This document shows positions 1 through 45,161 of a stretch of 45,161 bases of DNA, one piece after another. This DNA is from Escherichia phage KW1E_UTAR. Location of the stretch: the sequence record MZ506873; one strand, written 5' to 3'. Each line of letters opens with the position of its first letter. Position 1 is the first letter of the stretch. Position numbers and translations under genes: made by a program. The notes beneath the pieces were generated by a model. The model saw only the letters and a list, made by a program, of their open reading frames with translations, ran no database searches and was not told where the DNA came from.

Positions 1-152
1 GGGGATGCCTGAACATGCTGGAAGTGTCGGGCCGATACACTGGGGAGCGAGAAATCAGACTGGTGACTGTGGACCCTGACGACTGCGCGCTTTTCTCTGG
101 TGACGCCGCCGGGCGTCCGGCTTGGGGTATCGCCTGTTTAATTTATTCTTGA
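1..152 (+). CDS. DNA primase, C-terminal part (gene continues from 44425..45106 across the circular junction)
   Basis: Open frame runs in from the window end without a stop; stop TGA at 150-152; bases 1-55 duplicate 45107-45161. Confidence 0.6.
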   Translation, partial: GCLNMLEVSGRYTGEREIRLVTVDPDDCALFSGDAAGRPAWGIACLIYS

Positions 153-7821: not shown

Positions 7822-8592
7822 TTACAGAGTCCAGCGACCAGTGTTATTGACCATCATGTCGTGTGCGCCGACTCGCTTGTTCATCTTGAACACGTATACG
7901 CGGTCAAGCGTCCCTTCCTGCCCGTAGCAGATGTTAGCCACCTGCTTCTTAACCTGCTTGCTGAAGTATGCCGCGTCAGTCGATTCGCGGATGACGTCGA
8001 CCGTTCTGGTTGAGCAGTCGATCGAGACAGCGACAGAACCTTCGAGCGACATACGGGACGCGTCTACCGGGTAAGACGGGACCACTTCAGCCTGGGCCGG
8101 GCTGACCAGTGAAGAGAAGACCAGCGCAGCACCAGCGAACGCCAGGCCGATTTTGTGCGACAGGCTGTTCCGACGGGCCAGTGTTTGAGTGATGGCCTGA
8201 TCCTGGGCGGATTTTTTAGTCATCATTCTGGCGCGGAAGTCACGACAGAAATCAGAATCATCGTCACGAAGTGAAGCGTAGCCAGCATCATTATCAATCG
8301 CGTCATTCATGCGCAGCGCTTCAGCGTGGTAAGCGTCCATCTGTTCTGACACGCGAAGGGCAGCTTCAGCACAATAAATAACAGTGCTCAGGTGGTTAAA
8401 GAAGTCACGACCAGAACGACGCTTCAGAACATTCTCAACGTTGAACAGGATGTCCGCTGGCAGTTCGTTAGACAGTTCACACAGGATTACGCGAAGGTCT
8501 GATTTACTCTCTTTCAGCTTCAGACCAGCGGCGCGCAGTTCGTAAACGCGGGTCATAATTTTCAGTGCAGAGCGGATAGCGATAGAGTTCAT
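7822..8592 (-). CDS. membrane-anchored protein (cytoplasmic N-domain, one transmembrane segment, periplasmic C-domain)
   Basis: Internal hydrophobic segment IGLAFAGAALVFSSLVSPAQA around residue 160. Confidence 0.55.
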   Translation of the reverse strand: MNSIAIRSALKIMTRVYELRAAGLKLKESKSDLRVILCELSNELPADILFNVENVLKRRSGRDFFNHLSTVIYCAEAALRVSEQMDAYHAEALRMNDAIDNDAGYASLRDDDSDFCRDFRARMMTKKSAQDQAITQTLARRNSLSHKIGLAFAGAALVFSSLVSPAQAEVVPSYPVDASRMSLEGSVAVSIDCSTRTVDVIRESTDAAYFSKQVKKQVANICYGQEGTLDRVYVFKMNKRVGAHDMMVNNTGRWTL

Positions 8593-8643
8593 TTTCGTGT
8601 TCCTTTGGATTTTGGCGGAACGTTGTGTCCCGCCTTGAGATAC

Positions 8644-9346: not shown

Positions 9347-10774
9347 TTATTCGTCTAACAGTGGATTGTTAGCCATTATCTTATAGTCGATGTACATCTG
9401 AACGGCGTTTTCGCCACGCCCTTCGGTCCGCTCAACGATGTGGTGGGCCTTGACCAGCGCGGACAGCGCGCTAATGACAGACCCGCGTGGCATCCCGGTG
9501 ATCTCCGTCACCATGCGGCGCGCTGCTGATACAGATTCGCGGCCCTTCAGTTCGGCGCAGAACACGCGATACACCTCTTTCTGGTTATCGGTCCAGCGGT
9601 GACGGGTTCGACGCTCTTCCGGCGTTTCCTGCTTCTCTTCCTTCTGACCGACCACTTCGGCGGAGTTATCCAGGATGTACGTCATGAACGGTGATTTGTT
9701 CACTCCGGGGATCTCCGTCGGCATGTCTTCCAGCTTGATCGTGAACTGGGATTCGTACTCGTCAAGCAACGCCTTCTCTTCGGCCTTCGGGACCGACAGC
9801 GTCGGGCGACCACACAGTCGAAGCGTGGCATTGAACCCGCCGCCGCGCTGCTTGTCCGGGGTCAACATGACACCGTCGCCGTCCTTCTCACGGCGAAGAG
9901 ACCACGTCTTCCACATCGCGCCCTTCGCCGCGCCACCGCCTCGCGAATCCATCTTGCCGTCACCGGACAGGCTGGCCTTCGTCGGGTGGGACAGGAAAAG
10001 CCCGGCAGCCCCGATCGATTTGCAGAACAGCAGAGAGTTCACGCTAATGGCTTGCTGGTCATCGTTGCTGTTCTCTTCCAGCGACGAACCGTTCGACCGG
10101 ATGCAATGGGTCATGAGCGCGGCCTTAGTGTCGAACACCACCAGCTTGATCGGCTCACCAGCGGCCCAGTCATACAGCGTATTGATGTGGTTCGTCAGCG
10201 CTTCGCCTGGGCGGATGCCTTCCTTCGTCTTAACGAACGCCATAAGGTTCGGGAAGTTCGCAGTCACATAGACGCGGTCCTGAAGCTGGACGTCTTCAGC
10301 CAGTTCGATAGCGCGCAGCATAGCGCGGAATCCTTCCGGGTCCTCTGAATACACCACGACCCGCCCAGGCACCACGCGGAACGCTCCGAGGAAGTGACCT
10401 ATCTGTGTGTCGGCGATGCAAGCGGCGAGGCGCGCCACCACTGTCGACTTCCCTGTCCCTGGCCCGGCGACCAGCTCATTGATGGTGTTCGAATACAGCA
10501 TGTGCTCCACCACGACGTCGGGGACGCGGCGATCGGACACCTTCTTCTTCGTCCCGGTCAGTAGGTCCAGCTTGCGCTGAAGGTCGGGAACAGAATCGTT
10601 CTCTTTGGCGTGGAACGCGTCCATGTCCCGATAGACTTCGGCCCACTCTTCCGGCGTCAGTTCGACCTGAAAATCGTCGTCTGTCTCACTTGTCGGAACG
10701 ACCATTTCGACAGGCATGTTCTGGTTGTCTTGCGACGTCGGTTCGACACCGCCGCCATTCTCTAAGTTATCCAC
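9347..10774 (-). CDS. AAA/RecA-like ATPase with C-terminal winged-helix domain (possible replication initiator, helicase or regulator)
   Basis: Walker A GPGTGKST, Walker B-like LVVFDT, C-terminal HTH-like segment; GTG start with AGAGGG upstream. Confidence 0.7.
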   Translation of the reverse strand: MDNLENGGGVEPTSQDNQNMPVEMVVPTSETDDDFQVELTPEEWAEVYRDMDAFHAKENDSVPDLQRKLDLLTGTKKKVSDRRVPDVVVEHMLYSNTINELVAGPGTGKSTVVARLAACIADTQIGHFLGAFRVVPGRVVVYSEDPEGFRAMLRAIELAEDVQLQDRVYVTANFPNLMAFVKTKEGIRPGEALTNHINTLYDWAAGEPIKLVVFDTKAALMTHCIRSNGSSLEENSNDDQQAISVNSLLFCKSIGAAGLFLSHPTKASLSGDGKMDSRGGGAAKGAMWKTWSLRREKDGDGVMLTPDKQRGGGFNATLRLCGRPTLSVPKAEEKALLDEYESQFTIKLEDMPTEIPGVNKSPFMTYILDNSAEVVGQKEEKQETPEERRTRHRWTDNQKEVYRVFCAELKGRESVSAARRMVTEITGMPRGSVISALSALVKAHHIVERTEGRGENAVQMYIDYKIMANNPLLDE

Positions 10775-10825
10775 AGATTTTGACCCTCTCTTGACTGAAC
10801 ATTTTGTCGCGACTGTCTCGCTTTC

Positions 10826-11121
10826 TTAAGACAATACAGCATAGACGCGGCGCGCGCAACGTTCCGACGTCTAAAACATGCATATTACGACCTCACTATC
10901 AGTATGTTGTTTAACCACAGTAAGACAAAAATCCCAAAAGTGGCCCGATATCAATGACTTACGCGTGTCTTAACTTTCCGCCCCCTAATAAATAAAAACA
11001 AGTAAGACAAAACACCTCACGCGTACACTTAACTACTATATATTCCACCCTTGAGGGGTGGATATATATTAGTAGTGTGTAATAAGTGCATCTTGAGGAA
11101 AACAGACAGTCTTGTCTTAAC
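10826..11121. repeat. Cluster of five TAAGACA/TGTCTTA iteron-like repeats in an AT-rich divergent intergenic region
   Basis: TAAGACA at 10827, 10921, 11003; reverse complement at 10966, 11113; palindrome CCACCCttgagGGGTGG at 11045-11061. Confidence 0.6.
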
Positions 11122-11152
11122 TGTTCGACAAAGTAGAATCATACCTCAGTCG

Positions 11153-11161
11153 TGATATAAT
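11153..11161 (+). promoter_or_regulatory. extended -10 promoter element (TGaTATAAT)
   Basis: Perfect TATAAT at 11156-11161 preceded by TG at 11153-11154; about 22 nt upstream of the ATG at 11184. Confidence 0.4.
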
Positions 11162-11183
11162 GAACGCCACAGGAGGACGCAAC

Positions 11184-11696
11184 ATGTCAGACGAAATTAA
11201 ACACGTAACGAAGCGCGGAGTCGGAAGGCAGTTAACCTACACTGACGACGTGCCTGAACGCCTCACAGACTTCTTCGACCGTGATGTGGATGAATTCATC
11301 GTCCATAACTTCACGACCGCTGAGAAGTCGAACTATCGCGTCAAGCCCATCCCTACACTGGCAGGGTTCTGTCGCGAACTGGGTATCGCACCGTCAACGC
11401 TGCACAGATGGATGTCCGTCGAATCGCAACTGACACAGGAGCAGCGCGATGAATTGTGCAATGCTTACTCACGCGCCCGCACGCTACAGGAAAATATCGT
11501 CACCCAGATCGGCATGATGACTAATGGCACGTTCGCCGCTTTCATGCTGAAATGTAACTTCGGATGGCGTGACAACACGGAAGTGAAGACCGACGAGAAC
11601 GTGAAGCCTATCCGTGTCAAGATCGTCAGCGAACGACCTGTCGATGTAGACATCCAGACCACAGAACAGAAACCGATCGAGTGGGGTGATGACTGA
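11184..11696 (+). CDS. terminase small subunit-like HTH protein (tentative)
   Basis: VKPIPTLAGFCRELGIAPSTLHRWM HTH pattern resembles TerS families; start ATG 11184 with AGGAGG 7 nt upstream. Confidence 0.5.
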   Translation: MSDEIKHVTKRGVGRQLTYTDDVPERLTDFFDRDVDEFIVHNFTTAEKSNYRVKPIPTLAGFCRELGIAPSTLHRWMSVESQLTQEQRDELCNAYSRARTLQENIVTQIGMMTNGTFAAFMLKCNFGWRDNTEVKTDENVKPIRVKIVSERPVDVDIQTTEQKPIEWGDD

Positions 11697-12322: not shown

Positions 12323-12351
12323 TTGCAGTGGTGATAGCTATGTCGTAATAT
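12323..12351 (+). promoter_or_regulatory. sigma70-like promoter (TTGCAG-N17-TAATAT)
   Basis: Hexamers and 17-nt spacer read directly; upstream of the gene at 12389. Confidence 0.5.
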
Positions 12352-12388
12352 GTATTCAACGAAACGAAACAACCAAAGGAAAACGAAA

Positions 12389-12655
12389 ATGACCACAGCA
12401 GAACGCATTGCCAAAGTTTGGAACGCAAGCCGTAACGAAGACCTGAACGCTATCGCAGCGCTGGAAATCGTCATCAACACTTCGTTCGGCGCTGGCAAGT
12501 CAAGCCTGTCAGACATCGCACGAATCAGCATTCACAACATGGAAGTGACCTATCTGGACGGCTCCATCCTGACCGTTCTGGACCATTCAGCGGCGTGTGA
12601 AGTTGGGCTTACTGAATTCAGCTACGCATTCAAGGCGCAGGCTAAAGCCTGTTAA
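12389..12655 (+). CDS. hypothetical protein
   Basis: ORF-track frame 12350..12655; start chosen at ATG 12389 after AAAGGAAAA. Confidence 0.5.
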   Translation: MTTAERIAKVWNASRNEDLNAIAALEIVINTSFGAGKSSLSDIARISIHNMEVTYLDGSILTVLDHSAACEVGLTEFSYAFKAQAKAC

Positions 12656-39502: not shown

Positions 39503-39976
39503 TCAGAACGGGATATCATCGTCGAACCCGCTGGTCTGCTGCTGACGCTGTGGAGCTTGCTGCTGTGGCTGTCGCTGTGGCTGCTGTGTCTGCTGGCGTG
39601 GCTGTGAAGGCTGCTGTGGTTCACCCCATCCGCCGCCCTGTGGCGTCTTCTGACCAAAGAGAAGTTTAGGATCTACCATTTCAAGGGTGATATAGGTCTG
39701 CCCGTTATTACCTTCACGCTGATCGATGTTAAGCGCCTCAGACTGGATGGACACGATCTTACCCTTCACCAGGATGTCGTCATAAAAGGCGATCGCCGCC
39801 GGGGTCTTCGCGAACAGGGTGGCCTTATAGTTCGTGTAAACGCGTTCGTTATTCTGTCGGCGATCCTTGAACGATTCGGACATGTCCACGCCGTACATAA
39901 CATACGTACCGTTATTGTTGCTTCCTTCCTTGCGGAACACGTCGCGGCGAATCTCGCCTGTGATAATGTGTGGCAT
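39503..39976 (-). CDS. ssb: single-stranded DNA-binding protein
   Basis: Gln/Pro-rich linker and acidic C-terminal tip DDDIPF typical of SSB. Confidence 0.85.
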   Translation of the reverse strand: MPHIITGEIRRDVFRKEGSNNNGTYVMYGVDMSESFKDRRQNNERVYTNYKATLFAKTPAAIAFYDDILVKGKIVSIQSEALNIDQREGNNGQTYITLEMVDPKLLFGQKTPQGGGWGEPQQPSQPRQQTQQPQRQPQQQAPQRQQQTSGFDDDIPF

Positions 39977-41907: not shown

Positions 41908-42378
41908 TCATTCTGTGATTACGCCGTCAAGATACCAGCGCATAAAAATCATAAAACTTTTCCATCCATAGCAGACGACGCCGAACCCTCCGCCTTTTAT
42001 GGACTTCACCAGCCATTCAGATTGTTCTTCGCTTACCGCCGAAGCTAGTGTCTTCGTGGCCCGCTTTAACTCCACAGCGGCGAACCCGAACCGCCCACAG
42101 TGGGACCTGTGATTCACCTGGATGTCACTCGCTCCCTTCTCAAGTCCCATCTGGCGAAGCTGGCTTCTGTACTGCGCCGGAAGGTCTGCCGACTCGTTCA
42201 CGATGTGGCAGATAGCGACGTCCTTCCAGTGCTTCCGCCAGTGGCTAGCGCAGTCGATTTGGTGTAGCTTTTCGACGCGCTTGTCGGTCTTGTCCATGCT
42301 GTAAAGTTCGCAATATCCAGCGGGGTTCATGGACAGCGCCAGCGGGATCCTGTTCTTGTCAGATATCAAACGATTCAT
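41908..42378 (-). CDS. VRR-NUC-like nuclease (tentative)
   Basis: GASDIQV...FAAVELKRA...SEEQSEW...GGGFGVVCYG resembles VRR-NUC; follows the helicase with a 20-nt overlap. Confidence 0.5.
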   Translation of the reverse strand: MNRLISDKNRIPLALSMNPAGYCELYSMDKTDKRVEKLHQIDCASHWRKHWKDVAICHIVNESADLPAQYRSQLRQMGLEKGASDIQVNHRSHCGRFGFAAVELKRATKTLASAVSEEQSEWLVKSIKGGGFGVVCYGWKSFMIFMRWYLDGVITE

Positions 42379-44350
42379 CTACAAATACCTTTCTTGTAAT
42401 AACGTCTTTACGACCATTTTCCACCTTTCTGTGGGTCACTTTTACCGGTGCCATAAATTTATGGATGTGGCCCATTAATGCCTTTGCGTCCCTGATCTTC
42501 GACAGCGCGGCTCGCTCTTTCGGGTCCAGGACGTGCTTGTTAATGCCATTGTTGCGCCAGTGCATCCTTGCCCCTGGGTTCGTACTGGCGGGCCAGAATA
42601 TTTCCCACGCTCTGAAGGTGGCTTCGCCCTGGTTCCCGATGTCATAGCAGAACGCCAGGCCAGCGCCGTCCTTCGTCGGCTCGATCTTGAACCCACGGAC
42701 GTTGACGAAGTCGTCCTGTGTGTAGTTCTTCCGGTCAAGCTGCTTGTTAGGGTCAATAAGGCGCGCGCCACATCCACGACAGAACCGCGCGACAATGTCG
42801 TTCTCCACGCCACATCCGGCCTGAATGAATTCACCGCGATCGCCGTGAACGTCTTCGCACACGCGGGACTTCCAGAAGTATTCACAGCGCGCTTCGCTGC
42901 CGTCCGGCTGGGTAATCATGTTCGAACAGCGGCGGGCGTGTTCGCCGTTCTGGTGTCCACAGTCCGGGCAGTGCTTATATGACGCGTCACGGACGTCTTT
43001 CACGTACTGGTATTGCTCAAGCATCGGTGAGAAGTAAAGTTCAGCAAGGCAGTCCATAGCCCCGGCGTAGTCCAGAACCAGGTTGTTAATCTTCACGATA
43101 CCCAGTTCGACGTGGTAGTCCTTCAGTTTGCGCATACCGCGCCCGATAAGCTGGGTGATTAGCGTCAAGCTGCCAATCCTGCGAAGGATGACTATCGTGT
43201 CCCACGGCGGAACGTTCACACCAGTGGTAAGACAACCCACCTGGAATATGAACTTCAGCTTCCCGTCATAAGCCTCTTTCAGCATCCGGCGGCGATCTGC
43301 TTTTGAGGTCTTATCTGTCACGATGCCGTATGACACGCCAGGCGGAAGCGCTGCCGCCGCTTCCTGGCAGTGTTTTTGCCCGGCACACGTAACCAGTACA
43401 CAGTTGCGGTTCTTCGTCTTCTCTACCACATCCAGCATGATCTTCTGTGTCATGCTGCCCTGCGCAAGTATGCGCTTCTGCATTTCGTTTAGCTGCGCGT
43501 CGCTGAAGTCACCAGCCCCGTCATTGCCGTCACTTTCGAACCCTTCCAGATCGTAGGTCATTTCCTCTTCGATGGTCCCGAAGTCAGTCGGAACTACCGC
43601 GCCGAAGTCGACCAGATATTCCGTGGAAATATCCACGATGACCTTACGCCAGAATCCTGGCGTCGACATGTCCGTGTTCACGATCGGCTGTATGCCACGA
43701 TAGTCTGTTCCGGTGTACCCGATGACGACTAGCGGCTTCCCGTACTTTTCCATGCATCGGCGCTGTAGTTCACGGATGATAAGGGTGTAGCCTTTGCGTC
43801 CGGCATCAATCATCTTTTCAAGCGTGTCTTCTGGGTGGTAAGCCCGGCCCTTCTTCTGGACCATAGTTTCCTGTGAGTCGACCAGGTCGTCGACGTCGAC
43901 ATGGTGGCATTCATCGATCGCCAGTATGCGCGGGACGTAGTCCTTCAGTCGCTTGTTCAACGCATTAACGACGGTCCCTTCCGACCCGACAATGACAGGG
44001 TAAAACGTGGACTTTCGACCCAGCGACGCGCAGAAGATGGAGTTCTCTACGCCGAAGTTGAGCATTTCGGCGGCGTCCTGTTCGACGATCTCACCCTGGC
44101 GTGAAAGAACCATCATTCCCCAGTTAATCTTTCGAGCGCGGCGCGCCAGCAGTGAAATCAGCGTGGTCTTACCTGCTGACACGGCAGCCTTGATAATGAA
44201 CGGGGCCTGATAGCCGTTTATCTCTTTCGATGTCTCGTTATGCGTGGCCCACTGGTATGAATACGGTTCGTATGGGGTCACGCCTACGCCAGCCTTCAGG
44301 CGTGACAGGTCCATGTCTGCAATCTGTTCAGTAATAGACTTTACCAACAT
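42359..44350 (-). CDS. superfamily-2 DNA helicase (DEAH-like) with C-terminal zinc ribbons
   Basis: Walker A AAVSAGKTT, DECH box LAIDECHHVD, CPDCGH...CRGCGARL zinc-ribbon-like motifs. Confidence 0.8.
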   Translation of the reverse strand: MLVKSITEQIADMDLSRLKAGVGVTPYEPYSYQWATHNETSKEINGYQAPFIIKAAVSAGKTTLISLLARRARKINWGMMVLSRQGEIVEQDAAEMLNFGVENSIFCASLGRKSTFYPVIVGSEGTVVNALNKRLKDYVPRILAIDECHHVDVDDLVDSQETMVQKKGRAYHPEDTLEKMIDAGRKGYTLIIRELQRRCMEKYGKPLVVIGYTGTDYRGIQPIVNTDMSTPGFWRKVIVDISTEYLVDFGAVVPTDFGTIEEEMTYDLEGFESDGNDGAGDFSDAQLNEMQKRILAQGSMTQKIMLDVVEKTKNRNCVLVTCAGQKHCQEAAAALPPGVSYGIVTDKTSKADRRRMLKEAYDGKLKFIFQVGCLTTGVNVPPWDTIVILRRIGSLTLITQLIGRGMRKLKDYHVELGIVKINNLVLDYAGAMDCLAELYFSPMLEQYQYVKDVRDASYKHCPDCGHQNGEHARRCSNMITQPDGSEARCEYFWKSRVCEDVHGDRGEFIQAGCGVENDIVARFCRGCGARLIDPNKQLDRKNYTQDDFVNVRGFKIEPTKDGAGLAFCYDIGNQGEATFRAWEIFWPASTNPGARMHWRNNGINKHVLDPKERAALSKIRDAKALMGHIHKFMAPVKVTHRKVENGRKDVITRKVFVDESFDI

Positions 44351-44424: not shown

Positions 44425-45161
44425 GTGGCTAGTTACGATAAAACTGAAGTCCTTCAGGCAATGCTGACCAGGTGGCCTTCGGCCCTTGCGGAGCTGTGCG
44501 GATGGTCTGCTGATACGTTCAATGAACGGAAGCATTCATCATGCCCGGTCTGTGGTGGGCGGGACCGCTTCAGATGGGGGCATAAGAAGCCGAAGCAGCG
44601 CGACGAAGGGTTCGCATGGTGCAACCAGTGCGGAAGTCACGATGGGATATGGTGGTTCAGTAAGGCGCGAAATCAGTCGTTCGCTGAAGCCATTAACGAT
44701 CTGGGTGAATGGATAGGCGGTATGTCCGTCCAGCAGTTCGACAACGTCGCGAAGAAGGCGAAGGCGATGTCGAAGACGGTGGAGCGTCCGACGGTCCGCA
44801 TAAGCCACGAACAGGCCGAAGAACTGCTATCCCGCCCAGCGAAGGAAGGGTTCATCTATCTGCCGTGTCACGAAGTGGTCGACGGCGACATTCAGGCGCG
44901 CCCGGTCAACGTTGCGCGGGTAGGTAAGGACTTCAGCGTAACATTCGCCGCTGGTCGTGCATTCCCTGATTCACCGACCACGTTCACCTGGGGAAGCGTG
45001 ACGCCAATCAACCGGAAGCTGGACGGGTCGCCTGTCTACATGATCGAGGATCTCGATCTTGGCCTTGAGATAGCGGAGCGACACGACCGCGAAGTGTGGA
45101 TCGCGTGGGGATGCCTGAACATGCTGGAAGTGTCGGGCCGATACACTGGGGAGCGAGAAAT
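44425..45161 (+). CDS. DNA primase (zinc-binding N-terminus plus TOPRIM-like region), N-terminal part
   Basis: CPVCGGRDRFRW...WCNQCGSHDG zinc motif; YMIEDLDLGLEIAE acidic TOPRIM-like block; GTG start at 44425 after AAGGGG; no stop before window end. Confidence 0.7.
   Translation, partial: MASYDKTEVLQAMLTRWPSALAELCGWSADTFNERKHSSCPVCGGRDRFRWGHKKPKQRDEGFAWCNQCGSHDGIWWFSKARNQSFAEAINDLGEWIGGMSVQQFDNVAKKAKAMSKTVERPTVRISHEQAEELLSRPAKEGFIYLPCHEVVDGDIQARPVNVARVGKDFSVTFAAGRAFPDSPTTFTWGSVTPINRKLDGSPVYMIEDLDLGLEIAERHDREVWIAWGCLNMLEVSGRYTGERE
45107..45161. repeat. 55-bp exact duplicate of positions 1-55 (circular closure overlap)
   Basis: Read directly: GGGGATGCCTGAACATGCTGGAAGTGTCGGGCCGATACACTGGGGAGCGAGAAAT at both ends. 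Confidence 0.9.

Follow-up and report, generated by a model that had tools for sequence, protein, structure and literature searches.

A probable RepA-type replicative helicase with a C-terminal winged helix, encoded beside a candidate origin in Escherichia phage KW1E_UTAR

The sequence record of Escherichia phage KW1E_UTAR (MZ506873; 45,161 nucleotides, the whole of which is called the window here) carries on its minus strand an open reading frame (ORF) of 475 codons plus stop, at 9347-10774, with GTG as its start codon. We conclude with good confidence that this gene encodes a replicative helicase of superfamily 4 (SF4), of the type of RSF1010 RepA and the Pfam family AAA_25. The product joins a RecA-fold motor to a C-terminal winged helix, and the gene adjoins an intergenic region in which short repeats flank an AT-rich tract. 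The explanation that we favor on balance for the whole of these features is that a replicative RepA-type helicase docks via its own winged helix on the adjacent origin. That it is an origin-reading, self-loading helicase is proposed tentatively, with somewhat less than even expectation. We are slightly more reserved about the further idea that the winged helix is an exchangeable specificity cassette, co-evolving with the repeats, on an SF4 ring helicase that recognizes its own origin. The parts of the gene, with amino acid (aa) positions and isoelectric points (pI), are listed below.

9347-10774, minus strand: whole gene; probable RepA-like (SF4, Pfam AAA_25) helicase with C-terminal winged helix
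10523-10774, minus strand: acidic, mostly disordered N-terminal extension, aa 1-84, pI 4.24
9785-10522, minus strand: RecA-fold helicase core, aa 85-330
10442-10465, minus strand: Walker A GPGTGKST, aa 104-111
10127-10144, minus strand: Walker B LVVFDT, aa 211-216, counterpart of RepA LMVLDT (D140)
9593-9784, minus strand: acidic linker, aa 331-394, pI 4.7, of low model confidence, with the basic arm RRTRHR at its end
9380-9592, minus strand: winged-helix domain, aa 395-465
9350-9379, minus strand: conserved C-terminal tail ending in NNPLLDE, aa 466-475

The motor domain

The core was placed in its family by a Pfam AAA_25 match over aa 85-267 (profile positions 22-193 of 195; E = 1.7e-16), whose 60.9 bits exceed the curated cutoff of 27 bits. 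All the relatives match AAA_25 too, and in PHROGs the window protein matches the helicase halves of primase/helicase families; a search of NCBIfam with it returned nothing significant. AAA_25, in spite of the name, has the RecA fold and is akin to RepA and DnaB (PMC8965321). The best solved relative, identified with a profile of the 12-sequence family, is RSF1010 RepA (1G8Y). When this profile was aligned by hhalign with a RepA sequence taken from an IncQ plasmid, the match extended over aa 95-291 (96.5% probability; E = 8.6e-10) and paired the residues of the catalytic set, namely K109 with K43 (Walker A), E144 with E77 (motif 1a), D215 with D140 (Walker B), and H263 with H179 (motif 3). The same alignment pairs YSEDP with PAEDP, K266 (in SHPTK) with K182, and the EEN block with its counterpart. 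These five residues of the window protein (K109, E144, D215, H263, and K266) and the EEN block are invariant in the 12-sequence family alignment, and further motifs of the core are E144/D145, the EENSNDDQQ block, an invariant SRGGG (R278), and K308/R310. The core is a RecA-type fold that is closest to the ring helicases.

A sequence-only reading of this DNA had described an AAA/RecA-like ATPase with a C-terminal winged helix. The elements on which it drew, among them GPGTGKST, LVVFDT, and the acidic N-terminus, are all present, the C-terminal domain is basic, and both the RecA-like motor and the winged helix stand. The AAA+ part of the description falls away: the sole significant family match is AAA_25, the structural neighbors are of the RecA fold, and neither an AAA+ fold with a C-terminal lid nor its sensor motifs were found. 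The N-terminal extension ahead of the core contains a single predicted helix (aa 41-55), and its residues T40 and W44 are invariant among close relatives.

The winged helix, linker, and tail

A winged helix is confirmed at the C-terminus, and the protein is a fusion of a helicase motor with this domain. The domain is basic (pI 8.9), and the conserved arm RRTRHR lies directly N-terminal of it. Its helix 3, PRGSVISALSALVKAHH, differs by lineage, and close relatives all have the wing tip TEGRG unchanged; judged from the sequences, this combination of a variable helix 3 and an invariant wing tip suggests a winged helix that reads specific DNA. A DnaD-like match across the domain was nonsignificant (E = 0.072). 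Three other AAA_25 proteins (P0015, P0016, and P0019) have C-termini that look like winged helices by eye, with weak hhalign support (P 0.002-0.04). In the tail that follows the domain, P471 is invariant and L472 nearly so across the wider family, and the P-L pair is kept even in relatives of 25-30% identity. The tail may be a short linear motif or a partner-binding peptide for the primase, SSB, or a host replisome protein.

Two metagenomic relatives, L014 and L007, are otherwise about 90% identical, yet the block that encodes the winged helix (2739-3038 of L014) has only 45-63% nucleotide identity. Further mosaic blocks distinguish the same two contigs in terS, the gene of the small terminase subunit (TerS), and in the small genes downstream. 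The sharpness of the block in the helicase gene indicates recombinational exchange, in which the winged helix would behave as an exchangeable cassette.

The intergenic region and its repeats

Between the helicase gene and the divergently oriented terS lies a region of 409 bp. Its GC content is 41.8%, that of the whole genome 55.2%. Of the six copies of TGTCTTA[AC] that the genome contains, five are inside it, spanning 10826-11120. A cluster of short repeats in both orientations thus flanks an AT-rich segment beside the gene, and relatives share this layout. A tandem iteron array was found nowhere in the window. The elements of the region are as follows.

10775-11183, no strand: divergent intergenic region, helicase gene to terS; candidate origin and regulatory region
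10826-10833, minus strand: repeat TGTCTTAA, copy 1, overlapping the likely -10 of the helicase promoter; missing in the related phage KLB22
10920-10927, minus strand: repeat TGTCTTAC, copy 2
10949-10961, plus strand: match TATCAATGACTTA to the integration host factor (IHF) consensus WATCAANNNNTTR
10966-10973, plus strand: repeat TGTCTTAA, copy 3, left arm of an inverted pair around the AT-rich tract
10985-11001, no strand: AT-rich tract CTAATAAATAAAAACAA, kept in all close lineages; candidate DNA-unwinding element
11002-11009, minus strand: repeat TGTCTTAC, copy 4, right arm of the inverted pair
11024-11081, no strand: palindrome or hairpin with 28-nucleotide arms (free energy as single-stranded DNA, ssDNA, -15.6 kcal/mol; z -5.3)
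11113-11120, plus strand: repeat TGTCTTAA, copy 5, overlapping a -35-like TTGTCT hexamer facing terS

The IHF element is the only exact match to its consensus in the 45-kb window. A near-identical element occurs in every close relative examined, in an orientation that varies by lineage, and in the most distant relative it mismatches at the first (W) position only. The hairpin is kept in a 78%-related contig with a compensatory C:G to T:A change; at its position other lineages have a different GC stem between A- and T-runs, like a bidirectional terminator. A priming signal, a cos/pac element, and a terminator are candidate roles for it.

The repeats themselves change between lineages in a manner that appears to follow the winged helix. 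Metagenomic relatives keep the terS -10, GTACGCGTGAG, the AT-rich tract, the IHF site, and a hairpin, and the repeat word is replaced. Nine copies of CTTGTCGGA occupy homologous positions in the P0002 contig, which encodes a winged helix of 77% identity, and the P0003, P0004, and P0006 contigs, in which helix 3 is of the EYNTxK type, have words of the GTGAA/TTCAGT type. TerS was considered as the reader of the repeats and rejected, because its helix-turn-helix (HTH) is identical in the window and the P0003 contig and the repeat words of the two differ completely. On these comparisons the repeat word seems to track the helix-3 class of the winged helix and not the TerS HTH.

Several smaller features of the region were noted. 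The start of terS is probably the ATG at 11184, which has the ribosome-binding site (RBS) GGAGGA and is annotated in KLB22, and not the first ATG at 11160. The extended -10 element TGATATAAT (11153-11161) is kept in all lineages. A 19-nucleotide element, TATTACGAC-N4-CTATCA, has exact copies at 10883-10901 (plus strand) and 12332-12350 (minus strand), each pointing at a downstream gene start, and three more copies with two to three mismatches, where 0.5 would be expected; in relatives it is conserved, with its orientation reversed. A role as a phage promoter or a regulator site is possible.

Gene and genome context

The purine-rich AGAGAGGG lies 5' of the GTG of the helicase gene and is its likely RBS. 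The orthologue MVRL019 of Klebsiella phage vB_KM5a1-KLB22 (KLB22) shares 95% identity with this gene at the DNA level and 98.7% at the protein level; KLB22 is a siphophage of 45 kb in the proposed family "Ca. Mavericviridae" (PMC11845039). The two ends of the window, 1-55 and 45107-45161, are identical, a k-mer overlap of 55 nucleotides that marks it as a circular assembly and leaves a unique circle of 45,106 bp. The gene of a separate primase crosses this junction.

44425-45161, continuing at 56-152, plus strand (44461 is an alternative beginning): separate primase, with a Zn_Ribbon_Prim domain

This Zn-ribbon primase is the likely partner of the helicase; SF4 helicases typically work with a separately encoded primase of the DnaG type (PMC4889955). 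The other helicase of the phage, at 42359-44350, is a superfamily 2 (SF2) enzyme (ResIII plus Helicase_C) whose neighbors, a VRR-NUC nuclease, a RecE-like exonuclease, ERF, and SSB, form a recombination module. No polymerase, initiator, or loader was recognized in the KLB22 annotation or in Pfam and PHROG scans of 20 window proteins, many ORFs being of unknown function, and the related phage MED16 is described likewise (PMC8306585). Since the SF2 enzyme belongs to a recombination module, the primase is separate, and no polymerase, initiator, or loader was recognized, the protein described here is the only candidate ring helicase and therefore the likeliest fork helicase.

These findings alter several suggestions of the sequence-only reading. 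It had taken the SF2 helicase and the primase to cover the helicase role already, a view at odds with the place of the SF2 enzyme in recombination and with the SF4 catalytic set of the window protein. Its proposal of a helicase loader found no counterpart: no member of the DnaC/DnaI, lambda P, or Rep_3 families was matched in Pfam, NCBIfam, or PHROGs, and the protein is nothing like DnaC/DnaI or lambda P. An ATP-dependent regulator is unlikely as its main role, with autoregulation possible as a side function. Our findings are consistent with its suggestion of origin binding.

Two repeats outside the intergenic region were also noted. A 25-nucleotide inverted repeat (8589-8613 and 12368-12392; 88% complementary) comprises the RBS and start-codon regions CCAAAGGAAnACGAAAATGA of two opposed genes, and these near-identical start regions may reflect shared translational control. 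The imperfect tandem repeat of CTGCTGTGG-like units at 39539-39619, in the SSB gene, is coding low-complexity sequence and not an iteron array.

Relatives and database names

Proteins of this kind are rare. A HMMER scan of 1.84 billion representatives gave 16 matches at E < 1e-3 and six clusters at E < 1e-30, and word-indexed protein searches gave only six to seven relatives. By tblastn, relatives of about 31% identity over aa 86-446 are encoded in 48 further phage records; these are proteins of 513-565 aa from siphophages of Klebsiella, Pantoea, Escherichia, and Stutzerimonas. They are annotated as "DNA primase/helicase" or "hypothetical," yet no primase domain was detectable in them. Among 72,556 plasmids, tblastn found no homologue. 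In GenBank the KLB22 orthologue is called "regulatory protein repA," and the RSF1010 RepA helicase is deposited under a matching name. The name was probably transferred from that helicase and carries no information on a regulatory function.

Proposed mechanism and alternative explanations

The favored explanation may be set out as follows. The helicase gene would be the first of a leftward early operon, and its product would presumably assemble into a hexamer, a ring traveling 5'->3' along the lagging-strand template. A flexible acidic linker would connect the motor to the basic arm and the C-terminal winged helix, which would most likely recognize the TTGTCTTA(A/C) repeats in the adjacent intergenic region. 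With two of these repeats inverted around the AT-rich tract, beside the IHF site, the helicase would be delivered to a melted origin, where it would recruit the separate Zn-ribbon primase and the DNA polymerase III of the host, the latter because no polymerase was recognized in the phage. Binding over the two divergent promoters could bring about autoregulation as well.

Several observations weigh against this explanation. On the side of the motor, the reported arginine finger of RepA, R207, aligns to M287 in hhalign, so that the trans-acting finger was not placed. The invariant R278, K289, and R310 are candidate fingers, of which R278 was rejected as the equivalent of the RepA finger, residue counting pairing it with R197, as the alignment does. 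The full-length AlphaFold model is poor, with a mean predicted local distance difference test score (pLDDT) of 52.7 from seven sequences; its alignment is shallow because the word-indexed searches gave so few relatives, and the weakness of the model follows from there being only seven usable homologues. As for the winged helix, domains of this kind can serve in protein contacts in place of DNA binding, and two of its matches are such cases (the Cdc53 WHB domain and PolB1-binding protein 2). The covariation of repeats and winged helices comprises about three independent lineages, and in one comparison, that of P0005 with P0006, the winged helices are very different and the sites on either side of the AT-rich tract are nearly the same, TerS differing also. 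The repeats are irregularly spaced, some lie over promoter hexamers, and one is missing in KLB22, a pattern as much in keeping with operators as with iterons. The minimum of the cumulative GC skew is near 11-13 kb, where it is confounded by the switch in the direction of transcription. Finally, every relative has the region immediately upstream of terS, even with the helicase gene reversed.

This last point is what would be expected if the repeats, the hairpin, and the IHF site were a cos or pac signal for the terminase and the adjoining helicase gene were incidental. Symmetric nicking might take place at the palindrome, and cosB of lambda offers a precedent in joining repeated TerS sites with an IHF site. 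We nevertheless consider such a signal improbable. The window and the contig L008 have the same TerS HTH but wholly different repeat words, and the hairpin sequence is not kept between lineages with near-identical C-terminal parts of TerS. Moreover, this TerS matches P22 gp3 (GP3_package), the pac site of which is inside the gp3 gene itself. The records do not give the physical genome ends that would bear on packaging, the window being a circular assembly and the KLB22 record starting at the gene of the large terminase subunit, a start that is one arbitrary reorientation option in the methods of PMC11845039.

A different alternative accepts the RepA-type helicase and gives its winged helix another function, as a binder of a partner (the primase, SSB, or a host protein) or of DNA without specificity. 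The TGTCTTA repeats would then be operators through which a different phage regulator acts on the divergent early and late promoters, and the helicase would be loaded by transcription, by recombination intermediates, or by a small protein that we did not recognize. The protein-contact matches and the operator-like placement of the repeats would agree with this, but a conserved basic arm precedes the domain, a variable helix 3 with an invariant wing tip is the pattern of a sequence-reading domain, the repeat word follows the helix-3 class, and no other candidate reader of the repeats was identified. We therefore regard it as unlikely, giving it about one chance in a few. The least likely of the alternatives, for which we see very little room, is a protein that does not act at the fork at all: an ATP-dependent regulator, a loader of host DnaB, or a RecA/RadA/KaiC-like ATPase with a winged-helix repressor module. 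The overlap of the repeat sites with promoters and the GenBank name of the KLB22 orthologue speak for it, as do the Foldseek matches of the full-length, low-confidence model, which are chiefly to KaiC and RAD51 paralogues; these are generic RecA-superfamily matches, and as a family assignment they were set aside as too generic.

Comparison with known systems

Bacterial-type ring helicases of SF4 are usually described as needing a separate initiator, a loader, or both, such as DnaA/DnaC, lambda O/P, SPP1 G38P/G39P, or RepC of RSF1010, and self-loading initiator-helicases have been characterized for the AAA+ lineage. RepA of the IncQ plasmid RSF1010 (1G8Y; SF4, DnaB-like class) is a bare core of 279 aa, loaded at oriV by the separate iteron-binding initiator RepC. 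To such a core the phage protein adds an acidic N-terminus of 84 aa, a linker of 64 aa, a winged helix, and a conserved tail; the identity of the two is about 19-28%, and the R207 finger is unmatched at its aligned position. HSE3 gp019, C130_2 gp8, and MED16 gp68, uncharacterized proteins from siphophages of Klebsiella, Pantoea, and Escherichia, share the AAA_25 core, the C-terminal domain, and the PPL tail and differ in their longer, unrelated N-termini. In these three genomes the gene is likewise beside terS, with a module of SSB, ERF, exonuclease, VRR-NUC, and SF2 helicase and with no polymerase (PMC8306585). The protein also resembles Lactococcus phage F13 gp46 and corynephage BFK20 gp43, phage helicases of the RepA cluster, the former of which is an oligomerizing, ATP-dependent 5'-3' helicase (PMC8965321). 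In the portions of the literature on these two that we draw on, no C-terminal origin-binding domain is described.

In its overall plan, the closest parallels are the Rep proteins of the pathogenicity islands of Staphylococcus aureus (SaPIs; Rep1 and PriRep5) and P4 alpha, in which a helicase motor is likewise followed by a C-terminal winged helix, the gene is beside short (5-8 nucleotide) opposed repeats around an AT-rich center, and the primase is separate or fused (PMC9371898; PMC4889955). The C-terminal winged helix of SaPI Rep reads opposed iterons of 5-6 nucleotides around such a center by the rep gene (PMC9371898), and the same arrangement is described for P4 alpha (PMC4889955). There are differences as well. 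The SaPI and P4 motors are AAA+ enzymes (superfamily 3 [SF3] or 6 [SF6]) that move 3'-5', whereas the phage motor is of the SF4 RecA fold, with 5'-3' movement expected; their winged helices have no detectable sequence relationship with that of the phage. Binding and loading, demonstrated for SaPI Rep and P4 alpha (PMC9371898; PMC4889955), are what we infer for the phage protein, and the accounts of those two systems used here describe initiator-helicase fusions for AAA+ (SF3/SF6) motors only.

The phage protein is thus a divergent member of a known helicase family, in which the added winged helix makes a plausible new take on the self-loading theme. Should the winged helix not read the origin, it would be an ordinary, if divergent, phage replicative helicase. 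If the proposal is true, a misleading database name, "regulatory protein repA," is corrected, and a compact replicon of three parts (helicase-winged helix, primase, and an origin of about 400 bp) would be defined for a proposed family of Klebsiella and enterobacterial siphophages. More generally, the one-protein initiator-helicase of the SaPI and P4 kind would then have arisen also on a RecA-fold motor of opposite polarity.
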